Part shown: positions 29,094 to 54,637 of the stretch, piece by piece | How positions within the stretch are numbered: position 1 is the first letter of the stretch | Layout: each line of letters opens with the position of its first letter | Assembly (NCBI GenBank): GCA_045863295.1 | Contig: BTWA01000007.1 | Span: 77,889 to 141,888 of the forward strand | Source: Candidatus Hydrogenedentota bacterium | Lineage (GTDB): Bacteria; Hydrogenedentota; Hydrogenedentia; Hydrogenedentales; SLHB01 | DNA length: 64,000 nt | Direction of reading: 5' to 3' | Notes under the pieces: model-generated | What the model saw: only the letters and a program-made list of their open reading frames with translations | The model's database searches: none | What the model was told of the DNA's origin: nothing | Program-made: the position numbers and the translations under genes

Positions 29094-30506
29094 CTACGCC
29101 AGCACGCCCTGTACAACCTTTCCGTGTACGTCCGTAAGCCGGTATAGGCGTCCCTGAAATTTGTACGTGAGCCGCTCGTGATCGATGCCAAGCAAGTGCA
29201 ACAGCGTGGCATGGAAATCGTGCACGTGCACGCCGTTCTCCGCCACGTTGTAGCCGAACTCGTCCGTCTGGCCGTACGACAGGCCCGGTTTCACGCCGCC
29301 GCCCGCCATCCACACCGTAAAGCAGCGGGGATGATGATCGCGCCCGTAGTTGCCGTCGCTGAGTTTGCCCTGCGAGTAGTTGGTGCGCCCAAATTCGCCG
29401 CCCCAGATGACCAGGGTCTCGTCCAGCATGCCGCGCCGTTTCAAGTCCATGATCAGGGCCGCGCAGGCCTGGTCCGTCTCTTTGCATTTTACTGGGAGAT
29501 TCTTCGGCACGTCGCCGTGATGGTCCCAGTCCCGGTGGTACAGTTGAATGAATTTCACGCCCCGCTCGGCCAATCGCCGGGCCAACAGGCAGTTCGACGC
29601 GAAAGAACCGGGATCGCGCGAATCCGGCCCGTATTCCTCAAAGATCGAATGCGGTTCGTCGGACATGTCGGTCACATCCGGCACGGAGGTTTGCATGCGG
29701 TAGGCCATTTCATACTGCGCAATGCGGGATTCCAATCCCGTGTGCCCGGTTTGTGCCAGTTGCCATTCGTGCAACTCCTTGAGCCGGTCCAGCAACATGC
29801 GGCGGCTTTCGCCCGTCACGCCGTCCGGGTTGGTCAGGTAAAGCACCGGATCGGCCCCGGCCCGGAATTGCACGCCCTGGTGGGTTGATGCAAGGAATCC
29901 GCTGCCCCAAAGCCGCGAATACAGCGGCTGGCCGCCCTTGGCCTTGGTCAACATCACCACGAAGGAAGGAAGATTCTCGTTTTCGGATCCCAGGCCGTAA
30001 GACAACCAGGACCCGATGCACGGCCGGCCCGAAAGTTGGGATCCGGTCTGCAGAAACGTAATCGCGGGATCGTGATTAATCGCCTCCGTGTACATGGAAC
30101 GAATCACGCACAACTCATCCGCCACCTGCGCCGTGTAGGGAAGCTGATCGCTGATCCACTGCCCGCTTTGGCCATGTTGCTTGAACTGGAATACCGACCC
30201 CGCGAGCGGCAGGGACGACTGGTTCGCCGACATGCCCGTGAGCCGCTGGCCCTGCCGCACGGAGTCCGGCAACTGCTGCCCATTGAGCTCGTTCAGCAGC
30301 GGTTTGTAATCGAACAAGTCCATCTGCGAGGGACCGCCGCTCTGAAAGAGATAGATCACCCGCTTCGCCTTCGGCGCGTAATGGGGGAGATCCAATGCCA
30401 TACCGGGTGCAACGCTCGCACCGGCCCCGGAGGGATTGAGTAGATTGGCCAAAGCCATGCCGCCAAGGCCCATGCCGAACCGGTTCAAAAAACGCCGACG
30501 GCTCAT
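29094..30506 (-). CDS. DUF1501 domain protein (sulfatase/alkaline-phosphatase-like fold) with Tat signal
   Basis: The N-terminus MSRRRFLNRFGMGLGGMALANLLNPSGAGA has a twin-arginine motif. The rest fits the conserved DUF1501 layout, including the ...DHHGD... and C-terminal GGGVKPG-type motifs. The internal Met at 30506 is preferred over track 30554. Confidence 0.85.
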   Translation of the reverse strand: MSRRRFLNRFGMGLGGMALANLLNPSGAGASVAPGMALDLPHYAPKAKRVIYLFQSGGPSQMDLFDYKPLLNELNGQQLPDSVRQGQRLTGMSANQSSLPLAGSVFQFKQHGQSGQWISDQLPYTAQVADELCVIRSMYTEAINHDPAITFLQTGSQLSGRPCIGSWLSYGLGSENENLPSFVVMLTKAKGGQPLYSRLWGSGFLASTHQGVQFRAGADPVLYLTNPDGVTGESRRMLLDRLKELHEWQLAQTGHTGLESRIAQYEMAYRMQTSVPDVTDMSDEPHSIFEEYGPDSRDPGSFASNCLLARRLAERGVKFIQLYHRDWDHHGDVPKNLPVKCKETDQACAALIMDLKRRGMLDETLVIWGGEFGRTNYSQGKLSDGNYGRDHHPRCFTVWMAGGGVKPGLSYGQTDEFGYNVAENGVHVHDFHATLLHLLGIDHERLTYKFQGRLYRLTDVHGKVVQGVLA

Positions 30507-30564
30507 GCCGTCCAGGGGCTCCGGACCGGTGCAAACGGGGCAATGTCTATCCATGAAACCAACC

Positions 30565-33500
30565 TCAATACTTGGTTTGAAATGCGTCCACGTTCATGAT
30601 CAATTGGGCCACGGCGGTGGCGGCTGCATACTGCGCGGGATCAAAATCCTCCCGCCGCGGTCTTTCGCCCACATCCGTGTAGGCAATGGCTTCTTCGGCA
30701 TGTGCGGTGTAATACGCAACTTGCTCGTCGTATGCCTGCTGTAAAATTGCCGCTTCTTCCGGCGAAGGGCTTTGGCTCGTTAATGCGCGGTACATGTGCG
30801 TAAGGCGCGCTTCCACATCGGAATGCGCATCCATCGCCTTTTCGGCCAATACCCGCGAAGCTTCAATATACTGCGGATCGTTCAACAGGATCAGGGATTG
30901 AAGCGGAGTCGCCGTGACTTCGCGCCGCACCGTGCACACTTCCCGGTTCGGCGCGTCGAACGTGGCCAACGTGACCGGATGCACCGTGCGCTTCCAGTAC
31001 GTGTACATGCTTTTCCGATAGAGACCGTCGCCCGAGTCGGGCACATAGGTAAGGCCGCTGGCGTCAATCCAGAGATCCGTGGGCTGATACGGCTTCACAC
31101 TGGGTCCCCCCACGGTCGTCACCAGCAGGCTGCTGGCAGCAAGTGCATTATCCCGTATCAGTTCCGCGGAAAGCCGCTGCCGCGGTCCACGTGCGAGCAA
31201 AACGTTGTGCGGATCGCGGTCGGTCAGGTCCGGGCGCGGAGTCGAGTCCTGGCGGTACGTCGCGGACATGACAATCAACTTGAGCAGTTGTTTGGTATCC
31301 CAGCTGGAGTCCCGGTATTCCTTGGCCAGCCAGTCCAGCAAATCCGGATGGGAAGGCGCGCGGCCCTGGGTGCCGAAATCCTCCTGGGTTTCCACCAGTC
31401 CACGGCCAAAAACCATCAGCCAATACCGGTTGACGGCCACGCGCGCCGTCAACGGGTGGTCAGGCTCGAAAAGCCATTGGGCCAATCCCAGGCGGTTTGC
31501 AGGACGCTCGCCGAACGGCATAATGCTCTCCGGCGTGGACGGTTGCACCGGATCGGTCGGGTGATCGTACGCGCCGCGAGCCAGCACGTACGCCTGTCGC
31601 GGTTCCGGCATGTCTCGCATCACCATAATTTCAGGAACCCCGCCAATAAACGTATTCTCGATTTCCCTGGCGACCTGCAATGCCGTTGTGGCATCGCGAT
31701 ACGCCGGATCGACCGCAAGAAGGTAATACGCAAAGAGCGAATCCTCGGCGGCAGGATCCGTCCCGGTGCAACGTTCCGCGATAATAGTAGGGAGATCGTG
31801 TTGGCCGGCTATGGATTCCACTTCCAGCGACGAAATCTCGCGATCGAAAACCATGAATTCATCGAGAAGGCCGTTCGTGAATCCGTTGTCGCGAAAGCGT
31901 TGCCCAAGATGGAGGGCAGGGGAGTCTTTAGGGTCGGCGTACATGATTGTTTTGTACAGATTGTCGCGAATCACCTCTGTTTCAAGGAGTGTGCCGTTCA
32001 TGAACAGGCGGATGCCGGAAGCCTTGCTGGAGCCGTCGTAGGTCACGGCCACATGTGTCCAGGCGTCGATGGGAATCGCTTCCTTCGCGGTCACCCGCAC
32101 GGCATTGCCCGGCCAAAAGTGATTCAACGCAAACTCAGGCCGGCCCTGATTCAGCAGAAGCTCGTAGCCGCGGCTGGCGGCATCGAGAGACGCCTTGGAC
32201 GCATGGCACACCACCATGCGATCCGTATGGCCCGGAATTCGGATCCACGATGCAATGGAAAACGGTTGGCACCGTTCGAACTTGCCCTGCTCGGCGAGTT
32301 TCACCGCGTCTTCGCCGCTAAATAACGCGGCGTGGCCCACTTTGCCCTCCGTTGCGGTCACGCCGGAGTCGACGTCCGCGGGTTTGTCCGCCGTGCTCGT
32401 ATTGGGCGTCTTGCCATCGGAAATTTCGTCGAACGGTAAGTGTGCGATAGGCGCCAGCGGCGGCGCGTTTCGATCGGGACTGTTTCGCCACGCAACGAAG
32501 CGCTCGCGAGCCGGTTCGATGGCCTGTGCGCGTTCGGCAACCTTGGCCTGTATCGATTCCATGTGCCGGACGTGTTCCGCGCGTGATTCCTCGGTCGTCA
32601 GGAACATCCCGGGCGACGGAGTTGCATTGGTGAAGTGGGAGTACATCCCCGATTCGTCCAGATTGTTGAAAAACGAGAACAGGCTGTAGTAATCGCGTTG
32701 CGAGATGGGGTCGAACTTGTGGTCGTGACAGCGTGCGCAATCCATCGTCAGACCGAGGAACGCGGTCGAGAAAGTATTCGCGCGATCCGCAACATAGGCC
32801 ACGCGGAATTCTTCAGGGATACTGCCGCCTTCGTTGGTTTGACGATGTAGGCGGTTGAATGTCGTGGCAAGGACCTGATCCTGGCTTGGATTGGGCAGGA
32901 GATCGCCTGCAAGCTGCCACGTTACAAATTGGTCGTAGGGCATGTTTTCAGTGAATGCCCTGATGACCCAGTCCCGCCAGGGCCATACAAACATTTCGAC
33001 ATCCGCCTGATAGCCATAGGTATCGCCATACCGCGCAAGATCGAGCCACTCATTGGTCATGCGCTCGCCGTACGCCGGCGACTCCAAAAGCCGATCGACC
33101 AGCCGCTCATAAGCGCCTGGCGCTTCGTCGGCAAGAAACGCGTCAATCTCTTCAAGCGATGGCGGCAACCCGGTAAGGTCCATGGAGACTCGGCGGATGA
33201 GGATTTCTTTGTTCGCTTGGGGTGAGGGTGTCAATCCCTCGGCCTGCAAACGCTCAAGGATAAACAGATCGACAGGAGTCTTCGCCCAACCTGCGCTGTC
33301 TCGAATATCCGGCAGTGGGGTGTCCGCCAACGGAATGAACGCCCAGTGTGGTTTGTATTCGGCGCCCTCCCGGACCCATCGAACCAGTTTCTCAATCTGG
33401 GTCGAATCCAGTACGCGCTTGGAATCGGGCGGCGGCATTTTCTCAGATGGATCTCCGCTCGTGATACGCTTGACCAGTTCGCTTGCATCCGAGTTTCCAG

Positions 33501-33723
33501 GCACGACCGCGCCCTTGCTCTTGGCCTCCTCGGCGACGTCCAGCCGGAGTCCGGCCTTGCGCTGGTTGGCGTCCCGGCCGTGGCAATGAAAACAGTTGTC
33601 CGCCAGGATCGGCCGGATATCGCGATTGAAGTCCAGCGGTTTCGTTTGGCCGTATGCGGCTGTGGCAAAGCCGGCAAATGCAGCCCAGAAGGAATAGAAC
33701 AAAACAGCCCGATACATAAACAC
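30565..33723 (-). CDS. Planctomycete-type cytochrome c domain protein (PSCyt1/PSCyt2/PSD1; DUF1549/DUF1553) with concanavalin/LamG-like insert
   Basis: Signal peptide, then a heme-binding CxxCH (DNCFHCHG) near the N-terminus. DUF1549-like ([21 protein letters not shown]) and DUF1553-like (C-terminal) regions are present in 1052 aa. The gene sits immediately upstream of the DUF1501 gene, the canonical pairing. Confidence 0.85.
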
Positions 33724-42943: not shown

Positions 42944-45871
42944 TTATTCCCATTGGCCGTTGTCGAATTTCGCGCAGTCTGTCTGATCTCCATTCAAATT
43001 CCAGGATACGGCTTCGCCATGGGCATGAAATTCGCGCCAGTGAGACCTTGATTTCAAATTGCCGTTCTGCCAGTAGATGGACATTACTTCGTTACTTTTA
43101 TCCGTGTGGTCCCGCTTCCATTCGGGTTGTCCGTTGGGTGCGTAAGATATTTCGAGTCCGGTCTTTTGACCGAGTTCGTAGGTAGTTTCGTAGCACTTCG
43201 TGCCGTCGCTGTAGAACCACGACTCCGGTCCATGCAGCAAATAGCGTCCGTCATCGCCTACACCGGCGTTCCATGTGTGCTTGGGTTTTCCGTCGGGATA
43301 TGATTCTGAATACAGATTCACGTCGCGAATCACGTGCGCGGAATTTGTCATCAAGGCCTCATTGGGTGGGCTATTTGATTCCGTTGCGAGTATCCATGAT
43401 TCGTTCATGGCGAAGTGGAGGCAGGGTTTATTCATGGTAGTGATAACGTGGATCAATCCGTCCGGCGCCTGGCGCGCCACGGAGTAGCCAAGCGTTGCCT
43501 CCATATTCACCTTTTCGCTGTCCTCGTGTGGCTGCGCTCCGGGGAGTTTCTTCCTAATCCACGTTTCGCCGTCGTCTTCGGAGAGTGCCACCATAGCGCC
43601 CCTTTCCGAGACGGTAACCGGGGAAGCGCCGTCTATTCGTTGCAGATCGCCGCAGAAGAAGAGACGGCCGCTCTTCAATCGGATTACACACGGCCGTTGA
43701 TTGGAGCCGTAAGCGGGAAACGGTGTTTCAGAGACGGTCCACGATTTTGCTTGATCTCGAGAAATAGACTGAGGCATGTACCCGCCGATTTCACTGCTCT
43801 TGCCTCCCAATCCAAGGATCGATTCTCCGTCGGAAAGGAGCGTAATGGTGGTATGCCGGCCGCCGGTTCGGCCACCGGGATCTTCCCATGTATGTAGGCC
43901 GTCTCTGCTGAGCCAGAGTACGGACGACGGTCCTTCGCCGTCGCTGGGCAGGAAGACGCGCCCCTCCTTGTCTTTTAGCATCGTATTGATGGGTTGTCTG
44001 GAATGGGGCCCGAGTAGTGTCGTGAATTGGGGAAATTGGACGTCGCTCCAGTTGGCCCCGCTATCGTTGGTTTCGATCCAGCTAAAGGGATATGCGCCCG
44101 CCGCGTGGGTATTTGCCCAGAAGAAGCGAACAGTTGTTTCGTCCTTCCATAACAGCGGCGTATTGTCGCAAGCGTCCGGCATGTCCATGAAGAGGCTTGG
44201 CATGTCCCATTCGTCGTTGCCGAACCGCAATCGTGTTGCGATAATGGCCATCCCCGGCTCGTATTCCTCCCATGATGTGAATATTGCCATCAACAGATCG
44301 CCGTTGGGCATGACTTCCAGTGCGGGGCTGTGGTTGTGTCCGCAAAAGGCGGGATGCAATCCGAGTAGTGCCATGGCGCGTACATGGCGCGCGATGCGTT
44401 CGGAGTGGGATTGGGCGTTAAATGCGGTAATGGTTTCGGGGGGCGAAGGAAGCAGGTACCGCTTGCGGAAATAGGGTTTGTTTTCCGGCGGTCCGAACGA
44501 AAGGGCCGCACCATGCGTTAACTGTTTTATGCCTCTGTTGACGAACGGTGTGCATGATGCAACGGGAATAGAGTCGGGCATGGTTGCCTGGACGATGCGA
44601 AAGCCGATGTCATGCCGTCCGAGTTCAGCGGGTCCTTTGTCCGCGCCAAATGAGGGAGGCATTCCTGCGCGATTGGACTGCCGTTGATAATAGTAACCGC
44701 GAGTATGGGGCAGCATGAAGCGTGTGTTTGCGTCGATTTTGTTGCCGCGCACGACGCGAGCGACCCCTGAGGCCGGACCGACGGGGTCACGTTCCGCGAA
44801 TGCAGGGTATTCGCCGTACCAGTCGTGACACCATTCCGCGACGTCGTCGCACATGCCAATGAGGCCGAGTTTCCCTGGGGTTGGCTTTGACAGCAGTGGC
44901 AGGTTTGCGGCTTCCACGCCGTGTGCATCGAAGCCGCCAAGCCACGAAGGCAACGCGTTTGTGGTCTTGTTGAACACGAAATACAGCCGAAAGGGCTTGG
45001 TGGCTTGGATGGACAAAAAGCGATCCTCGTTCGAGTACTCTTCAGTCACGCAGGTCTGAACGAGTCTTGCACCTTCGAGCGATTTGTCCATTTCGGTGAC
45101 GAGATATTCACGATCGAGGTACGGCTTTGCGCCAACCTGGAGGTTTGTGTGGACGCGTTGTGGTCCATAGGCGGGTACAGCGATCTTCCATTCACAACCT
45201 GGATCCTCGGACACCACAATGGGTATGAACGTTCCTGCAGATCCGGTGCGTGCACGGTCATTTCCGCCGAACACGTATTCGCCGGCATCGAACAATTTAG
45301 AGTAGACAATTCCTTCAAACGTCGTGGTTTTAAATACGATATTTGGGGCCAAGTTGAGCGCGGAATTTGTGTTGTCTCCGGGACCGCCTCCGTTGAGCGT
45401 GCAGGCGCGTTCCCACTCCGCTTCGGTCGGCAGCCGATAGTGATTTCCGTCCTTGCTGGAGAGCCAAGTACAGTATGCGACGGCGTCGTTCCAACTGACA
45501 CCTGTGACCGATCCCGAAGCGGAGGAGACTGTATGCGTGGGATCGAACCGCTGGTATTCTTCCAATGTGACCTTTTGAGTGGCGATGCGATATTCGTGAG
45601 TGATAATCACTTCGCGCACGGGTAGTTCGTCCCAATCGCCGGAGTCCGAGCCCATGGTGAAGGAACCTCCGGGAACGGTCACGAAGTTGGCATTATCGGA
45701 CGTGGGAGGGGCGCTGTGCACGTAGACGGGCACTGACAAAAGAAGAAACGTCAGAAGTATGTGACGTGGGCGCAAATCGACCCCTCCCTGTGTGTAGAAC
45801 TTACTCGCACCGGCGGCGGCAACTACATAATACGAAGTCGCGCGACGTAAGCCAATCAGGGGGGGATTCAA
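42944..45871 (-). CDS. Secreted multidomain protein: split FGE-sulfatase (SUMF1/EgtB/PvdO-type) domain + BNR/sialidase-like beta-propeller + C-terminal MORN-variant (YwqK-like) repeats
   Basis: The FGE-type N-terminal half (FTMGSDSGDWDELPVREV...VSWNDAVAYCTWLSSKDGNHYRLPTEAEWERAC) and C-terminal half (LIGMCDDVAEWCHDWYGEY...RVVRGNKID...GFRIV) are separated by a roughly 170-aa insert. Four Asp-box-like motifs follow (SNDSGANWSD, SRDGLHTWED, SRDQAKSWTV, SEDDGETWIR). The last 90 aa have a WxYxNGxxK pattern (WFYSDGTKCYET...YAPNGQPEWKRD...IYWQNGNLKSRSHW). The start codon (45871) overlaps the stop of the upstream OMF gene (45868). Confidence 0.65.
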   Translation of the reverse strand: MNPPLIGLRRATSYYVVAAAGASKFYTQGGVDLRPRHILLTFLLLSVPVYVHSAPPTSDNANFVTVPGGSFTMGSDSGDWDELPVREVIITHEYRIATQKVTLEEYQRFDPTHTVSSASGSVTGVSWNDAVAYCTWLSSKDGNHYRLPTEAEWERACTLNGGGPGDNTNSALNLAPNIVFKTTTFEGIVYSKLFDAGEYVFGGNDRARTGSAGTFIPIVVSEDPGCEWKIAVPAYGPQRVHTNLQVGAKPYLDREYLVTEMDKSLEGARLVQTCVTEEYSNEDRFLSIQATKPFRLYFVFNKTTNALPSWLGGFDAHGVEAANLPLLSKPTPGKLGLIGMCDDVAEWCHDWYGEYPAFAERDPVGPASGVARVVRGNKIDANTRFMLPHTRGYYYQRQSNRAGMPPSFGADKGPAELGRHDIGFRIVQATMPDSIPVASCTPFVNRGIKQLTHGAALSFGPPENKPYFRKRYLLPSPPETITAFNAQSHSERIARHVRAMALLGLHPAFCGHNHSPALEVMPNGDLLMAIFTSWEEYEPGMAIIATRLRFGNDEWDMPSLFMDMPDACDNTPLLWKDETTVRFFWANTHAAGAYPFSWIETNDSGANWSDVQFPQFTTLLGPHSRQPINTMLKDKEGRVFLPSDGEGPSSVLWLSRDGLHTWEDPGGRTGGRHTTITLLSDGESILGLGGKSSEIGGYMPQSISRDQAKSWTVSETPFPAYGSNQRPCVIRLKSGRLFFCGDLQRIDGASPVTVSERGAMVALSEDDGETWIRKKLPGAQPHEDSEKVNMEATLGYSVARQAPDGLIHVITTMNKPCLHFAMNESWILATESNSPPNEALMTNSAHVIRDVNLYSESYPDGKPKHTWNAGVGDDGRYLLHGPESWFYSDGTKCYETTYELGQKTGLEISYAPNGQPEWKRDHTDKSNEVMSIYWQNGNLKSRSHWREFHAHGEAVSWNLNGDQTDCAKFDNGQWE

Positions 45872-47496
45872 TTCTCCTGCGCGGTTAGATTGACCGAGGT
45901 TTCTGTTTCCGGCGAAGGTGTATCCCAGCCTCCGCCCAAAGCCTTGTAGAGTGCTATCAGGTCGGTCAATACGAAGCTTTCGCTCTGTACAAGCTGGTCT
46001 TCCGACAGGAACAGCTGCAATTGAGCCTGCAGCACGTTCAGGAAACCTTCCAAGCCACGTACATATCTTTCATTCGCAAGTTGAACGGCTTTTTCGTTTG
46101 CTTTGACCGCTTCTTCGAGCGACCTTCTGCGAATCTGTTGCTGGGCGAAAGATACCAGGCTGTTTTCGACGTCTTCCAAAGCGAAGAGAATAGTTCGCTC
46201 GTAGGCGATCAGGGCTTGTTCCTGACGCGCGTCCTGTACTTCTACGTTAGCAAGGATTCGCCCGCCTTGAAAGATGGGCCAATGGATGCTGGGGCCGACT
46301 GACCACAATTGATTTGAGGTACTCCACACATTTCCCAAGCTGGGACTTTGCCCGGCAAACGCACCGGTCAGGTAGAACTTTGGAAATAGGTCGGCTTTTG
46401 CCGCGCCTATCCGTGCCGTGGCGGCTGCGAGTTCTCGCTCCGCAGTGCGAATATCAGGCCTGCGGAGGAGGAGTTCCGAAGGCAACCCCACTGGAATTTC
46501 AGCAGGGGTCACCGGGATTGGAAGCGAGGGATAGAGCGTGTCGCGGAAAGAACCTGGGACTTCTCCGGCGAGTACGCCGAGGCGATGAATAGAACTTTCG
46601 ATTTGGGTATGCAGGACTGGCAACTGGGACTGCGTGGCGGCCAGCTGCGCTCTTGCCTGAGTGACATCGAGTTCGCTTGTCAGGCCTGCATCGAACCGGG
46701 CTTGCGTCAATTGTACGGTCTTTGCTTGTGCCTGGACATTTTTTTCGGTGATTTCCAGTCTGCGTTGGGTGGAACGCAACTCAATGTAGTTCAGCGCCAC
46801 CTCGGCGGCCATCGTAACTTGCACATCTCTGCGCCGTTCGATTTCTGCTTCGATGACTGCGCTTGCGGCCTCGGTTGCGCGGCGGTTTCCGCCAAAGACA
46901 TCGATTTCCCAACTTGCATCAAATCCTGCCTGATAGAGTCCCGATGTGCGATCGAATTTTTCGGGCGTGCTTCCGGGAGTGTAGTTATAACTGGTCGCTG
47001 AATCCTGGCCCGTAATGGTTGTGGTTGTGCTCAGGTCACCTCTTCGCGTCGTGAGGCTGCGCGAAATGCCGTTTGGCGACGTGGACAATCCGAACGAGAT
47101 GGGCGGTGCGGCCTGTTGATCGGGTTCCACCACTTGCCGTTCGGTCCATGATGCCGCGGCGTTGAGCGTTGGCCACAAAGCGGAGCCTGCGATACGTCTT
47201 GCGGCTCTGGCTTCACGCACGCGCGCTTCAGCGGTGCGGATTTCAAGGTTGTTCTCGAGGGTTTTGCCGATGAGTTCCGTGAGTACCGGGTCGTTCAACA
47301 GGGTCCACCACTGGCTCAAATCCGTGGATTGATCCACGGCGCCCCCTTCGCGAGGCGATGCCCATTCTGTGGGAATATCCACATCGGGCCGAGCATAGTC
47401 GGGTCCAGTTTTGCAGCCCGTACCCATGATCGTGCTTAAAGACAGAATGCAGGCGAAGATGATGTTGGCGACTCTATTTTGGCAAGTAGCACTCAT
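45868..47496 (-). CDS. RND efflux system outer-membrane factor lipoprotein (NodT/OprM/TolC family)
   Basis: Lipobox LSTIMGTGC, a conserved N-terminal PDYxRP motif (GPDYARPDVDIP), and two coiled-coil/beta-barrel repeats over 542 aa. Confidence 0.85.
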   Translation of the reverse strand: MSATCQNRVANIIFACILSLSTIMGTGCKTGPDYARPDVDIPTEWASPREGGAVDQSTDLSQWWTLLNDPVLTELIGKTLENNLEIRTAEARVREARAARRIAGSALWPTLNAAASWTERQVVEPDQQAAPPISFGLSTSPNGISRSLTTRRGDLSTTTTITGQDSATSYNYTPGSTPEKFDRTSGLYQAGFDASWEIDVFGGNRRATEAASAVIEAEIERRRDVQVTMAAEVALNYIELRSTQRRLEITEKNVQAQAKTVQLTQARFDAGLTSELDVTQARAQLAATQSQLPVLHTQIESSIHRLGVLAGEVPGSFRDTLYPSLPIPVTPAEIPVGLPSELLLRRPDIRTAERELAAATARIGAAKADLFPKFYLTGAFAGQSPSLGNVWSTSNQLWSVGPSIHWPIFQGGRILANVEVQDARQEQALIAYERTILFALEDVENSLVSFAQQQIRRRSLEEAVKANEKAVQLANERYVRGLEGFLNVLQAQLQLFLSEDQLVQSESFVLTDLIALYKALGGGWDTPSPETETSVNLTAQEN

Positions 47497-47509
47497 ACTG
47501 GATTACCGT

Positions 47510-50500
47510 TCAGTTCGTTGCTGGGACCGTCGAATCTGTTTCACGCTTTGGGGGGCGCCGGAAACGGAATTCGCTGATTCCCTGGATGATGACGAAAAAC
47601 AGCGGCACGAAGAACACGGCAAGAAACGTCGCCGCTATCATGCCACCCATGACGCCGGTTCCAATGGAGTGCCGGCCCGCGGCGCCGGCGCCCTCGCTTA
47701 TGGCCAGCGGCAACACACCGAGAATGAAAGCCAGCGAAGTCATCACGATGGGACGCAAGCGAAGCCTGGAGGCTTCCACAGCAGCCTCCACGATACCCTT
47801 TCCTTGTGCGCGAAGCACGGAGCAAAACTCAACGATGAGGATGGCGTTCTTTGCGGCGAGTCCAATCAAGGTCAACAGTCCTATTTGAAAATAGATGTCG
47901 CGCTCGAGGCCACGCAGGTATACCGCCAACACAGCGCCAAATACGCCACAGGGCACAGCGAGCAAAACGGCGAACGGCATGCTCCATTTTTCGTATTGCG
48001 CTGCCAATACGAGAAAGACCACGATCAGCCCGAACATGATAACGAAGGGCGCCTGGTTTCCGGCCTTGATCTCCTGGTATGACGCTCCGCTCCATTCGAA
48101 TCCATAACCCGGCGGCAGCGTTTCAGCGGCGATCTGCTTGATTTGTTCCGTGGCTTGGCCGGTACTGAATCCGGGGGCGGGGGACCCTGTTATTTGCACC
48201 GAAGGAAAGCTGTTGAATCGGCTCATTACGTTGGGCCCGGACCGGTATTGAATGTCGAGCACACTGGACAACTCGACCATCTTTCCCGCGTTGCTTCTCA
48301 CGAATATTTTTCGTATATCATCCGGGTGGGAGCGATATTGCGGCTCTGCCTGAAGCTGGACGCGATATATCCGGCCGTATTTGTTGAAGTCGTTGACATA
48401 CAGCGAGCCGAGGTAAGCCTGCAGCCCGTCAAAGATATTGGAGATTGGCAGGCCCATGGTCATGGCCCGTGTGCGGTCCACGGTCACGAAGAGTTGGGGC
48501 TGTGACACGTTCAACACGCTGGATACCCCCATGAACATGGGATCCTGACGCAACTTACCCACGAATTCGTCCGTGACGGCGGCGAGCTTGCGTACATCGC
48601 TGATACCCCGGCTCTCCAATTGCATTTCGAATCCTGCTCGCAAACCGAGCCCGCGCACAGCGGGAGGATTGAATGCCAGTACCAGGGCTTCCTGCATTCC
48701 CGCGAAGCGGCCGAATACGCGGCCGACAATGGCGTCTACATGATTCTCCGGGGCCATTCGCTCCGACCAATCCTTCAGATTGACAAACATGGCGCCGGCA
48801 CTTGTGCTTGCGGAGCGACCGGCCAGGAAGTCCTGTCCTCCGAGGGTAACGACCCGGGCGATTTCGGGTTGGTTCAGGAGGAAATCCTCCACCTGGCTCA
48901 TTACGGCCTTTGTGCGTTGGAGCGAAGCGCCTTGCGGCAATGACACGACGACCATGAAATACCCCTGGTCTTCCTGGGGCACGAACGCACTGGGGACGCG
49001 CTTGAACAGATCCGACGTAGCCCACAGGAGCACTGCGAAGAGGATAAGCGAGACAATGCCGAACTTGATTCCGAGACGTACCGAGCGCGTATAGAGGCTT
49101 GTCAAGACTCCAAAGATGTTGTCAAACCACCGGAAGAAAAAAGTTTTCGTGTGATTCGGTTTAAGCAGTACGCGACAGAGCGCGGGGCTCAATGTCAATG
49201 CCACGAGGCCTGAAATGGCTACCGAGATGGCAATTGTGACGGCAAACTGTTTGTACATGACGCCGGTCAGGCCGCCGAGGAAAGCCACGGGCAAATAGAC
49301 GGCAGAAAGCACGAGGACAATGGCAATGACGGGGCCTGTGACTTGATTCATGGCCTTGATGGTGGCTTCGCGCACGGGCAAATGTTCGTCGTGCATGATG
49401 CGTTCGACGTTTTCGACGACCACGATCGCGTCATCCACCACGATACCGATGGCGAGCACGAGGCCAAAGAGCGTAAGAGAGTTGATGGAGAATCCGAGGA
49501 GGAGCATGCCTGTAAATGTGCCGACGATGGCCACCGGGACGGCAATCAGGGGTATGATTGTGGCTCTCCAGCTTCCCAGAAACACGAAGACTACAAGAAT
49601 GACCAGTATGACGGCCTCGAAAAAGGTTTTTGCGACTTCGTAGATGGACACATTGATGAATTTTGTGGTGTCGAACGGAATATCGTATTGGACCCCTTTT
49701 GGGAACGCTGTTTGGAGGTTGTCGAGAGCTACCTTCAGGCCGTTCATTGAACTGAGGGCGTTAGCGCCGGGCTGCAGGAACGCGAGTATGAATGCTGTCG
49801 GTTTTCCATTCAGCCGGCCAAAGGAATCGTAGCTCAGCGATCCCAATTCGACACGTCCGATATCACGGATCTTGATGATGGAACCGTCTTCGGTGGCTCG
49901 CAAGATGATGTCTTCAAACTGCTCAGGTTCGTCGAACCGGCCCTCGGTAATTACGGGAATGGTAAAGGAGATTTCGCCACTCCCGGGTTCCGCGCCGATT
50001 CGTCCGGCGGCGTACAATCCGTTTTGTTCGCGAATCGCGTTGGCGACATCCGTGACGGTCAGTCCTTTTGCCGCCATTTTGTCGGGATCAATCCATATGC
50101 GCATGGAGTAGTCGCGCGCGCCGAACACGCTTACGTCGCCTATGCCAGGAACGCGTTTCAGGGAATCCAGCATATAGATGGTTGCGTAATTGCTTAGATA
50201 GAGGTCGTCGAACTGCGGGTCATCGGAATTCAAGGCGACGACGCAGAGGATATTATTCGAGCGTTTGATTACGGAAATGCCCTGGCGGATGACTTCCGCG
50301 GGCAACCGGGGTTCCGCACGTTTCAGTCGGTTTTGGGCTTCTACTGCCGCGATGTCCAAATCGGAGCCGATTTCGAAAGTCAGTGTGATTCCCAAGCTTC
50401 CGTCGTTGGCGCTTTGTGACTGGTAATAGAGCAGATTCTCAATGCCGCTCAATTCCTGTTCGATGGGTGCTGCGAGCGATTCGGCCACGGTTTCCGCGTT

Positions 50501-50659
50501 GGCTCCGGGGTAGTGCGCCAGGATTTCGACGGTTGGGGGCGTAATCTCCGGTGACTGTTCCACGGGCAGAAAATACATCGAGGCGAGGCCGCACAACGTG
50601 ATGATAATCGATAGCACGGATGCAAAAATGGGGCGATCGATGAAGAATTTGGAAATCAT
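47510..50659 (-). CDS. RND efflux transporter permease (AcrB/MexB/HAE1 family)
   Basis: 1049 aa. It opens with the canonical MISKFFIDRPIFASVLSIIITLCG and shows the 12-TM layout with two large periplasmic loops. Confidence 0.95.
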   Translation of the reverse strand: MISKFFIDRPIFASVLSIIITLCGLASMYFLPVEQSPEITPPTVEILAHYPGANAETVAESLAAPIEQELSGIENLLYYQSQSANDGSLGITLTFEIGSDLDIAAVEAQNRLKRAEPRLPAEVIRQGISVIKRSNNILCVVALNSDDPQFDDLYLSNYATIYMLDSLKRVPGIGDVSVFGARDYSMRIWIDPDKMAAKGLTVTDVANAIREQNGLYAAGRIGAEPGSGEISFTIPVITEGRFDEPEQFEDIILRATEDGSIIKIRDIGRVELGSLSYDSFGRLNGKPTAFILAFLQPGANALSSMNGLKVALDNLQTAFPKGVQYDIPFDTTKFINVSIYEVAKTFFEAVILVILVVFVFLGSWRATIIPLIAVPVAIVGTFTGMLLLGFSINSLTLFGLVLAIGIVVDDAIVVVENVERIMHDEHLPVREATIKAMNQVTGPVIAIVLVLSAVYLPVAFLGGLTGVMYKQFAVTIAISVAISGLVALTLSPALCRVLLKPNHTKTFFFRWFDNIFGVLTSLYTRSVRLGIKFGIVSLILFAVLLWATSDLFKRVPSAFVPQEDQGYFMVVVSLPQGASLQRTKAVMSQVEDFLLNQPEIARVVTLGGQDFLAGRSASTSAGAMFVNLKDWSERMAPENHVDAIVGRVFGRFAGMQEALVLAFNPPAVRGLGLRAGFEMQLESRGISDVRKLAAVTDEFVGKLRQDPMFMGVSSVLNVSQPQLFVTVDRTRAMTMGLPISNIFDGLQAYLGSLYVNDFNKYGRIYRVQLQAEPQYRSHPDDIRKIFVRSNAGKMVELSSVLDIQYRSGPNVMSRFNSFPSVQITGSPAPGFSTGQATEQIKQIAAETLPPGYGFEWSGASYQEIKAGNQAPFVIMFGLIVVFLVLAAQYEKWSMPFAVLLAVPCGVFGAVLAVYLRGLERDIYFQIGLLTLIGLAAKNAILIVEFCSVLRAQGKGIVEAAVEASRLRLRPIVMTSLAFILGVLPLAISEGAGAAGRHSIGTGVMGGMIAATFLAVFFVPLFFVIIQGISEFRFRRPPKRETDSTVPATN

Positions 50660-50668
50660 ACCTGCGCC

Positions 50669-51823
50669 TTACTCCGCGTCGGTATTGCTGGAAGTTTGCA
50701 TGGTTTTGACGGGATTGACCACGATTCCGGGCTGCACTTTCATCAATCCTTCCACGATCACCTTTTCGCCTTCAGCAAGGCCATCGTCGATGATCCAATC
50801 CTGGCCAACCCATGCCCCCGGTTTGACGGAGCGAAACTCGGCTTTGTTTCCTTCCGCGACGACATAGACATAGGCGCCTTGTGGTGATTGGCTCACGGCG
50901 CGCTGGGGTATGGCAATGGTTCCGGGCCTCTGCCAGCCACGGATATGGGCTCGGACAAATTGTCCCGGTTTGAGTGTATGTTCTGCGTTTCTAAAGGTGC
51001 CTCGAATTTCTACCGAACCTGAATCGAGATCTACAGACGTGGATTCGAAATCAATTGTTCCTTTTTCGGTATAGACCGTTCCATCGAGCAATGTAATTTC
51101 GAGATAGGGTTTTTCGTCGCCTGCGAGGATAATGCGCCCCGTTGCTTCGTCGTTTCTCATGCTCAGGTATTCGCGTTCACTGACTTGAAAACTCACGTAG
51201 ATTGGGTCTACCTGGTGCATGACGGTGAGCAGGCTGTTTTGAGATGCGTCGACAAGGCTGCCGATTTCTTTTTGAGCTTTTCCGACATATCCTTTCAACG
51301 GCGCGGAGATGACGGTATATCCGAGTTCCAATTCGGCCTTGGCCAATTGGGCTTTAGCGAGTTTAAGCGATGCAGCCGCATCTGATTGATCGGCGAGTTG
51401 ACGGTCCAAATCGCTTTCCGCAATGGCGCCCGGCACATTTACCGATTGGAGCCGTTTTACTTCCTGTTCCGCCAACTTTACGCGGGTCTGTGCCTGATCC
51501 ACGCGCGCGGCGGCAATTTGTTTATCGGCTTCAAACGGCCTTTGGTCGATAGTGAAAAGCTTTGTGCCTTCTTCGATCAGTGCGCCTTCCTCAAAATCGC
51601 GGGATTCGAGAAAACCTTGAACCCGGGCTCTGATTTCAACCGTTTTGGACGCTTCCGTCACACCCACGTATTCGTATGAAACCGGCAGTGTTTTTGCGTT
51701 GATTTCAATAACGGTTACGTCGGGCGGGGGCATTTGACCCGGAGGTCCTTGCGCATGGAGCGCTGGAGCCGCGAGCCACGCGACGAGGGCACAAAAGGCA
51801 AGTATCTGTGGTTTGGTTTGCAT
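50669..51823 (-). CDS. RND efflux periplasmic adaptor (membrane fusion protein, HlyD/AcrA family)
   Basis: Signal peptide, coiled-coil hairpin (AQTRVKLAEQEVKRLQS...LKLAKAQLAKAELELGYT) and lipoyl/beta-barrel segments. It sits immediately upstream of the RND pump gene. Confidence 0.85.
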   Translation of the reverse strand: MQTKPQILAFCALVAWLAAPALHAQGPPGQMPPPDVTVIEINAKTLPVSYEYVGVTEASKTVEIRARVQGFLESRDFEEGALIEEGTKLFTIDQRPFEADKQIAAARVDQAQTRVKLAEQEVKRLQSVNVPGAIAESDLDRQLADQSDAAASLKLAKAQLAKAELELGYTVISAPLKGYVGKAQKEIGSLVDASQNSLLTVMHQVDPIYVSFQVSEREYLSMRNDEATGRIILAGDEKPYLEITLLDGTVYTEKGTIDFESTSVDLDSGSVEIRGTFRNAEHTLKPGQFVRAHIRGWQRPGTIAIPQRAVSQSPQGAYVYVVAEGNKAEFRSVKPGAWVGQDWIIDDGLAEGEKVIVEGLMKVQPGIVVNPVKTMQTSSNTDAE

Positions 51824-51940
51824 GTTCCGCTGGTCCTTACTTCTTGCTCAGCGATTTCCGCGGCGGGCGCCTGATATACATCACATATGCACACCTGACC
51901 GAACACGCTTGCAGCACTATTCCAAGAGAGAGCGATGGGA

Positions 51941-52483
51941 TTACGATACGTTATCGGCCATGTGCAGCAACTCGTCCACCAGCTTTTTGCGTTGTTCGTG
52001 GCTGAATGGAGATACCTGGAGAAGTTCCATCAAGAAGAGCCCATCCGCTGCCAACAACAACAACGCCTTGCGTTCAAACATTTCTGCAGGCGACTTGTGG
52101 CCTTCGAACCGCTTTTCGTTGTATTCACGCACTGTGCTCATGAGCTGCGGCTCATTCGCGATAGCGGCGAGCATGGCCGCACTGACGCGGTCGTCCGAAT
52201 CCCGGCCGAGAAGGAGCGAAATGAGTTCCGCCTTCACTGCCCGGCTTGGTGTCTCGGGCAGGGATTGCAGGGTGGTTTCGCGTCGCGCATAGCTATGATT
52301 AATCAGACGCGCGATCATGCCTACGTGAAGCGCTTCTTTTGTAGGGAAGTGGTATAAGACGCCACCTTTGCTCACGCCCGCTTTTTCGGCGACTGCGTCC
52401 AAGGTGAGCCGAGCCGCGCCACCTTCCATCACTACGGCCTCCGCAGCGTCGAGGATCAGGTCTTTGCAACTGGGTCGTGGCAT
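51941..52483 (-). CDS. TetR/AcrR-family transcriptional repressor
   Basis: N-terminal HTH ILDAAEAVVMEGGAARLTLDAVAEKAGVSKGGVLYHFPTKEAL. 180 aa, transcribed in the same direction as and upstream of the efflux operon. Confidence 0.85.
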   Translation of the reverse strand: MPRPSCKDLILDAAEAVVMEGGAARLTLDAVAEKAGVSKGGVLYHFPTKEALHVGMIARLINHSYARRETTLQSLPETPSRAVKAELISLLLGRDSDDRVSAAMLAAIANEPQLMSTVREYNEKRFEGHKSPAEMFERKALLLLAADGLFLMELLQVSPFSHEQRKKLVDELLHMADNVS

Positions 52484-52501
52484 TTATGGGCACTCTGTAA
52501 C

Positions 52502-52521
52502 TATACCATCCGGACGGTATA
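52502..52521. promoter_or_regulatory. Near-perfect 20-bp palindrome TATACCaTCCGGAcGGTATA 19 nt upstream of the tetR start; candidate TetR operator
   Basis: Read directly from the sequence: tatacc / ggtata arms around the self-complementary tccgga core, one mismatch pair. Its position overlaps the likely tetR promoter. Confidence 0.4.
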
Positions 52522-52583
52522 CTAACTTTTACGTGTACTGCCTGTCAAGTAATTGATTTATTGGGAGACGGTGCGGAAGACGG

Positions 52584-52624
52584 CCACAGGGTGGAACGAC
52601 CCTTTCGGTCGTTCCACCCTGTGG
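52584..52624 (-). terminator. Perfect 18-bp stem / 5-nt loop hairpin (ccacagggtggaacgacc ctttc ggtcgttccaccctgtgg) downstream of the HEAT-repeat gene
   Basis: Read directly from the sequence, about 20 nt past the stop of 52645..54561 (minus strand). It lacks a U-tract, so it is either a rho-independent terminator without a poly-U or an RNA-stability element. Confidence 0.45.
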
Positions 52625-52644
52625 GAACTACGCTGGTTGTGCGG

Positions 52645-54561
52645 TCAGCCGCCGAGGCTGGTCAGGGTTCGTTGTGCTCTGTCTTTGATGCCTTCGTTGG
52701 TGGCTTTTCCCATCACGGCCTTCAGCGCTTCAATTGCGGGCGCTTTGCCGGCCTCCTGCTTGCCCAGTTCCGACGCGGCGCTCACAATGGCTGCTGCGGC
52801 CTCGTTTTGCACCGCCGGGTCATCCAAGTAGGGCTTCAATGCGTCCAGGGATCCCGGAGTGGGCAATGTACCCCATGCGCCGAGGACGAGCCATTTTTCC
52901 TCGGTTTTGGAAGCAATTCCCGTTGCCGTGGTCAGCATTTCGGCTTTCTTTGCGAGATCGGCCTCGGACCTCGCCAGGCGTACGTATCCACGAAGACCCA
53001 GGTCTTTTCGGGATGCATTGTCGCCCTGTGCCAGAGCGAGCAGGTGAGGAGCCGCTTCTGCGTTCGGCCAATCCGCCAATACACGGGCCGCCTCGTCGCT
53101 CAAGGATGCATCCGCATCTCCGAGCGCCGTGACGACAGCTTCAAGCGCTTTCGGGCTCCCTATGCGATTCAATGCGGCCAGGATCGCCACACGGGTCGAT
53201 GGAGACGTAGACGCCATGGAAGCGAGCAGTGCGGGCAGGACTTCGTCTCCGTAACTTCGGCTGATGGCATCCACGGCCTGTGCGGCTGCTCCGCGTTCGG
53301 CATCGTCTTTCGCGGCTTCCAATGTAGCGAGAATTGCCGGCATATCCTCCTTGCTTCCCAATACGGTCAAGGTTTTCAACGAAGCGAAGCGAACGTCCGC
53401 ATCCGCGTCCTTTATGTTTGCCGCGGCGAGTCCAGCCGCCTGAGGCGCCATGCGCCGGCCCAACAATTCAATGACGGGTGCTTTGACCTCGGCGGAGGAT
53501 GAAGCGACTGTGGCTGCCAATGCGGCATCGGCTTCCGCGCCTTTTAATTTGGTGAGTGCCTGCATGGCCAAGTCGGCGACCGTCTTATCGGGCGATGCGA
53601 GCAGTGCCGCAAGTGCGACGACGTCATCGGCATTGGCGAGTTTTCCGACGGCCTGAAATGCTGCGGCCTGGATGGCCTTGTCGTCGCTGCCGAGGAGTTC
53701 GAGGATGGTTTCACGCGCGGCCGGATCCTGGCGGTCGCCGAGACCCCGAATCAGCGCGGCCTGACCACCGGGCGGCAACGTGGGTAGTGTAGCCAGCAAG
53801 GCGCTGGTTGGCACGGAGCCGTCGGTTTTTTCTGAGACAATTTGCGCGGCCAGATCCCGGAAGACGGGGTCGTTACCGGCCAACGCCGCAATCAGGCGTT
53901 TTGGCGCTTGTTTTGGCCGCGTATCCATAACTGCTCGAAACGCGCCGGTCCGTACATACTCGGGTTCGCTTTCCGCGAGCAGCGCCTTCAGCACCGGCAT
54001 GGCCGCCTTGGGATTGCCGTCCGCGGCGAGTTGTTGTGCGGCTGCGAGCAATCCTTCGGCCAGCGGTGTGGACAGCGCATCCGCAGCGTTTTCTTTCACC
54101 GCCATCAGCGCCTTTGCTGCTTCTTCCGTGCCGATCCGGCCGAGTGCGCCGGCCGCTGATCGAGCGATTTCGGCATCCGCGTCGTTCAGAAGCTGTGCCA
54201 GCATCGAAGCGGCCTTGGCGTCCCGCCGCTCACCTAGCGAAATAATCACACCTGCCTTGTGGAGTCCGGTTGTAGAGGCCAGCGCATCACGCAGGGCCTG
54301 GTCGACTTCCGGATAGGGCATGGGTTCCAGGGCGTTGCGCGCTGCGTGGCCCAGTTTCTCCACGTTGAGCAGGGCCGCGAGGGCAGGTACGGACTTGGCG
54401 GTGCCCACGACCTGCAACGCGCGGCATGCCTCGAATTTGGCTTGCCATGCGGCATCACTCTGCAGCACGGCTATGAGTTCGTCTTCGTTGCCCGTATACT
54501 GGGCGAACGCAGCTGAGGCCAGAGCCGCTGTCAACAGCATGGCCAGCCCCGCCGATCGCAT
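52645..54561 (-). CDS. Secreted HEAT-repeat (PBS-lyase HEAT-like) protein
   Basis: Internal start MRSAGLAMLLTAALASAAFAQ (signal peptide). The rest is Ala/Leu-rich helical repeats of about 30 aa with recurring ...ALGxIGxxxAxxALxxLLxDxD... units. Confidence 0.7.
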   Translation of the reverse strand: MRSAGLAMLLTAALASAAFAQYTGNEDELIAVLQSDAAWQAKFEACRALQVVGTAKSVPALAALLNVEKLGHAARNALEPMPYPEVDQALRDALASTTGLHKAGVIISLGERRDAKAASMLAQLLNDADAEIARSAAGALGRIGTEEAAKALMAVKENAADALSTPLAEGLLAAAQQLAADGNPKAAMPVLKALLAESEPEYVRTGAFRAVMDTRPKQAPKRLIAALAGNDPVFRDLAAQIVSEKTDGSVPTSALLATLPTLPPGGQAALIRGLGDRQDPAARETILELLGSDDKAIQAAAFQAVGKLANADDVVALAALLASPDKTVADLAMQALTKLKGAEADAALAATVASSSAEVKAPVIELLGRRMAPQAAGLAAANIKDADADVRFASLKTLTVLGSKEDMPAILATLEAAKDDAERGAAAQAVDAISRSYGDEVLPALLASMASTSPSTRVAILAALNRIGSPKALEAVVTALGDADASLSDEAARVLADWPNAEAAPHLLALAQGDNASRKDLGLRGYVRLARSEADLAKKAEMLTTATGIASKTEEKWLVLGAWGTLPTPGSLDALKPYLDDPAVQNEAAAAIVSAASELGKQEAGKAPAIEALKAVMGKATNEGIKDRAQRTLTSLGG

Positions 54562-54637
54562 GAGGGTGCAAGACCCAAGTATCCCCTTCATCGTTCCACC
54601 TTTCTATCGAATGCCCGTTTTCTTGAATGGTCCGGTT

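Follow-up and report, generated by a model that had tools for sequence, protein, structure and literature searches.

The efflux locus described here raises the question of whether a gene for a large secreted protein belongs to the TetR-controlled operon that it directly follows. The locus lies within a 64,000-nt stretch of Candidatus Hydrogenedentota DNA (contig BTWA01000007.1), the whole of which is referred to below as the window. The listing of open reading frames (ORFs) for the window confirms five ORFs where a sequence-only reading had placed them, all on the minus strand: tetR (51941-52483), the gene for a membrane fusion protein (MFP) acting as periplasmic adaptor (50669-51823), an RND permease gene of the HAE1 multidrug type (47510-50659), a gene for a NodT-family outer membrane factor (OMF) lipoprotein (45868-47496), and a fifth gene, referred to as gene 5, whose longest ORF covers 42944-45871 (975 codons, from TTG 45871). 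The features of these genes and of their control region given below lie on the same strand. The sequence-only reading had proposed that the efflux operon is extended by gene 5 through translational coupling. Inspection of the start codon and of related loci led us to a different view, since the overlap on which coupling depended appears to be a product of start-codon choice and the orthologous efflux operons do not include the gene. We consider it likely that two independent units stand head-to-tail on the minus strand, namely an autoregulated efflux operon and a stand-alone gene for a secreted protein.

The apparent coupling depends on where translation of gene 5 begins. The longest ORF opens at TTG 45871, which overlaps the TGA of the OMF gene by 4 nt as TTGA, and one further in-frame start candidate, TTG 45775, lies ahead of the signal peptide. 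An alignment of 20 sequences indicates that homologs with complete N-termini open with a short hydrophobic leader aligned to the residues after 45775, while the 32-residue extension encoded from TTG 45871 has no counterpart in any aligned homolog. GGAGG (45787-45783) is positioned 7 nt upstream of TTG 45775, compared with an AGGAG just 2 nt upstream of TTG 45871. Translation from 45775 also yields a classical Sec signal peptide, MRPRHILLTFLLLSVPVYVHS followed by APP (45713-45775), as judged from the sequence and from the N-termini of homologs. In the AlphaFold model of the resulting 943-aa form, the mean predicted local distance difference test (pLDDT) score is 92.3 and the predicted template modeling score is 0.90, with low confidence confined to residues 1-27 (pLDDT <50 at 1-16 and 18-27), as for a disordered leader. 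Taken together, the homolog N-termini, Shine-Dalgarno spacing, signal peptide and model make TTG 45775 the most likely start, giving a gene of 42944-45775. This start leaves a spacer of 92 nt (45776-45867) after the OMF stop codon, so that there is neither a start/stop overlap nor translational coupling, and the 4-nt overlap reported earlier is best described as an artefact of taking the longest ORF. A Tat signal within the 32-residue extension (LRRATSYY...) was considered and rejected; its hydrophobic stretch is short and no homolog has the extension.

To place the junction in a comparative context, the locus was viewed from both sides. For the efflux side, five orthologous operons were read (L162, L163, L164, L168 and L169). 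Within the reach of their contigs, all five encode a TetR_C_28 regulator, MFP, RND permease and OMF in this order. The window's TetR shares 61% identity with the regulators of these operons, the RND pumps of the three loci compared are 76-81% identical to the window's pump, and the OMF has many Hydrogenedentota homologs at 55-64% identity. The genes located 3' of the OMF gene are BcrAD_BadFG-SIS-GH38 (two loci), a convergent permease, an AXE1/S9-like hydrolase and an ECF-sigma/kinase fusion, and an FGE-like/propeller gene of the gene 5 kind follows the OMF gene in none of the five, FGE denoting formylglycine-generating enzyme. When the neighbors of the operon in L162 and L164 were searched against the window by tblastn, none matched, and synteny did not extend past the four-gene module. 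Because the orthologous operons keep the same four genes and differ beyond the OMF, we regard the four genes as the conserved unit.

Starting from gene 5, the comparison took in 22 loci, each with a full-length relative (30-61% identity). Seventeen of these came from 159 loci among the listed contig-collection matches, which are mostly generic FGE-domain genes, and five from contig look-ups; flanks extended up to 9-10 kb on each side, with several contigs only 4-9 kb long. Searches by tblastn with the window proteins found no TetR, MFP, RND or OMF homolog near the gene 5 relative in any of the 22. Instead, the neighbors vary, and include genes for a GDSL lipase, an MFS transporter, an M23 peptidase, TrmO, a fucosidase and PARG. 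The five-gene arrangement is thus absent from both sets of loci, which argues that gene 5 is a stand-alone gene, and its adjacency to an efflux operon would be specific to the source lineage.

Some individual loci merit separate description. In L169 (GCA_016215105.1), a gene for a 170-aa NUDIX hydrolase (7414-7926) sits between the RND and OMF genes. Sample ERZ25039549 holds both halves of the comparison: the L164 contig carries the four-gene efflux operon followed by BadFG/SIS/GH38, and on a separate 220-kb contig (L001) a gene 5 relative with 61% identity lies beside GDSL-lipase and metallophosphatase genes. If L001 and L164 come from one genome, they offer a direct view of the two units apart. 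Among the matches listed, the only other adjacency of an OMF gene and an FGE-domain gene is found in a deltaproteobacterial metagenome-assembled genome (MAG; L020, 503-2407), where an OMF 52% identical to the window's is followed after 220 nt by a gene for a 234-aa FGE-domain protein without a propeller, and then by a VapBC-like pair. Because FGE-domain genes are very abundant, this adjacency is probably a coincidence.

Several observations weigh against separating the two units at this junction. The OMF gene and gene 5 are co-directional and merely 92 nt apart, and a terminator scan found no terminator-like hairpin in the spacer, so that read-through transcription is possible. The spacer does hold a promoter-like site, TTGGCT-17-TATTAT (45855-45827; 9/12 matches), but sites of this kind are no commoner in the spacer region than in shuffled sequence, and the site is therefore not evidence on its own. 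tetR has no obvious Shine-Dalgarno sequence, and Shine-Dalgarno usage in the phylum is not established. The NCBI annotation places the start of gene 5 at a third codon, ATG 45655 (903 aa, P0001). Finally, the nearest gene 5 homolog compared is 56% identical over its full length (61% in relatives without the insert described below), so that the comparison covers relatives beyond the immediate lineage. A protein begun at ATG 45655 would lack the signal peptide as well as the initial conserved strands of the FGE domain (residue 28 onward in the 943-aa form). For this reason that start was rejected, and the deposited annotation probably misses some 40 codons of the gene. RNA folding detected no significant structure in the 92-nt spacer (z = -1.47).

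An alternative is passive read-through, in which a five-gene transcript would exist in the source organism only, with gene 5 initiating independently at TTG 45775 and having no functional tie to efflux. The shared strand, the 92-nt gap and the failure to find an intrinsic terminator all speak for such a transcript. Orthologous OMF genes are likewise trailed by unrelated co-directional genes after 44-283 nt, which indicates that loosely appended downstream genes seem to be common in the phylum. However, positive evidence for read-through was not found, the spacer combines its promoter-like site with a good Shine-Dalgarno sequence, and gene 5 homologs often look monocistronic (L002 has a divergent neighbor, and gaps of 379-540 nt are seen in L002 and L165). 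We therefore judge passive read-through to be unlikely. Still more doubtful is the idea that gene 5 was captured behind the efflux operon in the source lineage and is expressed from the TetR-controlled promoter; were it true, a multidrug pump and an extracytoplasmic enzyme acting on glycans would be induced together by one small-molecule signal. A functional five-gene operon, in which gene 5 would be coupled to the OMF gene via TTGA and its product would act together with the pump, for instance on an exported substrate or a glycan of the cell envelope that it modifies, can draw on the 4-nt overlap of the longest ORF and on the OMF and FGE-domain gene pair of L020, but it would require a 32-codon extension that homologs lack and that would bury the signal peptide, it would rely on an AGGAG only 2 nt before its TTG, it is at odds with an adjacency seen in 0/5 orthologous operons and 0/22 relatives' loci, and the L020 protein is a different one without a propeller from a very abundant class of genes, such that this reading is largely refuted by the comparative data and strikes us as highly improbable.

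Two independent units thus remain our preferred reading, and the control region of the first is well delineated. The sequence-only reading had pointed to a palindrome upstream of tetR as a candidate operator, and this proposal gains considerable support from the comparison. The 20-bp palindrome TATACCaTCCGGAcGGTATA (52502-52521) lies 18 nt from the tetR ATG and occurs once in the window versus 0.03 times expected by chance; no second site was found in the window, even with three mismatches allowed. Its core, TATACC-N8-GGTATA, is part of a candidate operator spanning 52497-52526, and the 20-bp element is embedded in a more extended but imperfect palindrome, GTTAGTATACCGTCCGGATGGTATAGTTAC, overlapping the -10 hexamer of a sigma-70-like promoter (TTGACA-18 nt-TAGTAT, 52519-52548; 10/12 matches). 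The palindrome is present in 4/4 orthologous loci for which sequence upstream of tetR is available (L162, L164, L168 and L169). Alignment of the four reveals a -35 element TTGAC[AG], a spacing of 17-18 nt and a -10 element TA[CG]TAT in the same placement. The -10 element forms the left arm of GTTA[CG]TATACCGTC..G..GGTA[CT]AGT[AT]AC. Because this footprint is conserved while the intergenic DNA around it diverges among the orthologous loci, there is good evidence, at the level of sequence, that the conserved island is a functional promoter and operator, and the palindrome is a strong candidate for the site bound by TetR.

TetR-family proteins repress by promoter occlusion and are released from DNA upon ligand binding. 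Here, tetR and the genes for the MFP, the HAE1 RND pump and the NodT OMF would be transcribed from the single sigma-70-like promoter, and by analogy a TetR dimer would bind the palindrome over the -10 element and block transcription. Repression would last until a pump substrate binds the TetR_C_28 domain. In the 117 nt that separate tetR from the MFP gene, the terminator scan found no terminator-like site, a result consistent with one autoregulated transcript.

The protein assignments of the efflux unit are secure by profile score. The 180-aa TetR combines a TetR_N helix-turn-helix (50.2 bits) with a TetR_C_28 ligand domain (67 bits), both over their Pfam cutoffs. Against NCBIfam, the 384-aa MFP matches TIGR01730 (RND_mfp) with 253 bits versus a cutoff of 94.9, the 1049-aa permease matches NF000282/RND_permease_1 with 1383 bits versus a cutoff of 1250 and carries ACR_tran over its full length, and the OMF (up to 542 aa; OEP/NodT) matches TIGR01845 with 389 bits versus a cutoff of 210 and carries a lipobox-like ...IMGTGC at its N-terminus. 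These scores, together with the comparative data, uphold the earlier description of a TetR-controlled tripartite RND operon, and on sequence criteria the module reads as a standard HAE1-type efflux operon under predicted TetR repression. The window's OMF and its Hydrogenedentota homologs measure 510-560 aa and match the NodT profile in two parts, with profile position 90 not aligned until residue 151. The parts are separated (residues ~105-185) by a Ser/Thr-rich low-complexity stretch (…STSPNGISRSLTTRRGDLSTTTTITGQDSATSYNYTPGSTPE…), which looks like a lineage-specific insertion.

The second unit encodes a secreted 943-aa protein with an FGE-like domain, a beta-sandwich insert, a sialidase-like propeller and MORN-like repeats. 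The domains named in the sequence-only reading were largely recovered. FGE-sulfatase (PF03781) is matched with 97.5 bits in two stretches, and the corresponding fold (44576-45694) occupies residues ~28-130 and ~300-400. BNR_2 is matched with 51 bits at residues 492-777, within a six-bladed beta-propeller (43376-44368) whose translation contains four Asp-box-like motifs (TNDSGANW, SRDGLHTW, SRDQAKSW and SEDDGETW). The proposed MORN-variant repeats fared less well, as MORN_2 scores 25.2 bits, below the Pfam cutoff of 29.6, although the AlphaFold model displays about ten regular beta-strands (E816-E938) as a beta-hairpin array in this C-terminal, MORN_2/YwqK-like region (42947-43348). A precomputed PF07661 match is carried by many gene 5 homologs.

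The combination of these domains had been thought unusual. A literature search for the pairing of FGE-sulfatase and BNR domains found nothing relevant. The databases reveal a large and widespread family. The best match, at 100% identity, comes from a MAG of Candidatus Hydrogenedentota with the locus tag prefix AMXMBFR84. At least 1355 matches were found in total. The 120 best have scores of 697-1194 bits and identities of 43-61%, and those with a named source come from Planctomycetota, Verrucomicrobiota, KSB1, the FCB group, Bacteroidota and others. This distribution over several phyla argues that the architecture did not arise as a local fusion. A search with just the propeller yields 136 cluster representatives at E<=1e-30, rising to 693 at E<=1e-3 (clusters at 50% identity). 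Within the family, P0014, which is 55% identical to gene 5, is broken in L166 (307-3133) into two reading frames overlapping by 11 nt, one for an FGE fragment of 153 aa and one for the remaining 791 aa, probably as a result of a frameshift or an assembly error.

Inspection of the FGE-like domain indicates that its fold is retained without the catalytic metal site. The domain matches FGE chains in the PDB at E ~1e-9, and the position of human FGE Cys336 is taken by Ala349 (GNKIDA) in gene 5. There is no Cys in that segment of the gene 5 protein or of the 81-sequence family consensus, so the copper-binding pair, whose retention the sequence-only reading had left to be checked, is absent across the family. 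Because the pair is absent, we conclude from the sequence that the domain is not a formylglycine-generating enzyme. The insert of ~170 aa that divides it (44876-45385, residues ~131-300) is beta-rich and confidently modeled (pLDDT ~80-96), and has no Pfam match even at E<=10. Among the 20 aligned sequences, it is carried only by the query, P0002, P0003, P0006, P0014, P0016 and P0023, and it may be an inserted carbohydrate-binding module.

The propeller is structurally close to a sialidase. A Foldseek search aligns it to PDB 1eur with a template modeling score of 0.71 (target-normalized), an E-value of 1e-14 to 1e-15 and 15-19% identity. The propeller profile also matches sialidases at ~1e-14, with alignments that cover the Asp-box blades only. 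A comparison by hhalign with a NEU2 sequence gave 30% probability in the wrong blade register and left the Arg triad, the Tyr/Glu pair and the Asp unmapped. We infer that gene 5 encodes a secreted glycan-binding or glycan-processing protein. The second unit would be translated from TTG 45775, uncoupled from the OMF, to give a Sec-secreted protein in which a non-catalytic FGE/C-type-lectin-like domain, a sialidase-fold propeller and beta-hairpin repeats would, most plausibly, bind or process a glycan or other extracytoplasmic polymer.

The result is mainly corrective, in that an apparently exotic operon extension becomes a routine efflux operon beside an unrelated gene, with a misleading overlap that arose from taking the longest ORF. 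Phylogenetic footprinting now defines the promoter and operator of a Hydrogenedentota efflux-operon family, a phylum for which, to our knowledge, there is no cultured, genetically tractable representative, and both elements could be used directly in electrophoretic mobility shift assays or in the design of reporters. The gene 5 family is large, strongly conserved across phyla (45-60% identity) and uncharacterized. Judged not to be an FGE, and perhaps not a sialidase either, the protein presents a reasonable biochemical target.

Two further features of the window deserve mention. A hairpin with a perfect 19-bp stem and a GAAA loop (52584-52625, minus strand), read from the sequence as CCCACAGGGTGGAACGACC-GAAA-GGTCGTTCCACCCTGTGGG-like, sits just 3' of a HEAT-repeat gene (52645-54591) and upstream of the efflux promoter. 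Lacking a T-tract, it was not called by the terminator scan, and it is likely to mark the transcript end of the HEAT-repeat gene and the upstream boundary of the efflux operon. Farther away, a DUF1501 gene and a PSCyt1/PSCyt2/Laminin_G_3/PSD1 gene form a pair at 29094-33723 (minus strand), near genes for GH123-like, DUF362 and CarboxypepD_reg-repeat proteins. Pairs of DUF1501 and PSCyt1/PSCyt2 genes are abundant in Planctomycetota-like genomes, and we know of no function for them.

Comparison with known systems clarifies what each unit shares with its nearest described counterparts. The efflux unit resembles the AcrR/AcrAB-TolC, TtgR/TtgABC and MexAB-OprM types, with which it has in common an adaptor, a 12-transmembrane RND permease and a NodT/OprM-type OMF lipoprotein in one operon, as well as a TetR-family repressor and a palindromic operator over the promoter. 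In the AcrR and TtgR systems the regulator gene is transcribed divergently, whereas here tetR is the first gene and is co-directional with the pump operon. The ligand domain here is TetR_C_28, and the OMF, like its 510-560-aa Hydrogenedentota relatives, has a split NodT match.

The FGE-like domain of gene 5 shares with human FGE/SUMF1 (PDB 2aft and 1y1e) the fold and the RLPTEAEWE and EW-x-DW motifs. It differs in two respects: human FGE has the copper-binding C336/C341, which the gene 5 family lacks, and the gene 5 domain, unlike that of human FGE, is split by the ~170-aa beta-rich insert. PvdO and GldK/PorK, members of the fold that are not FGEs, are alike in missing the Cys pair and give weak, sub-threshold matches. 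The propeller, in turn, has in common with the GH33 sialidase of Micromonospora viridifaciens (PDB 1eur) its six blades and its Asp-boxes. In contrast to GH33 sialidases, the gene 5 family has invariant His-rich motifs of its own, such as GHNHSP and GGRxxGRHTT, and because of these it may act on a different substrate or by a different chemistry.

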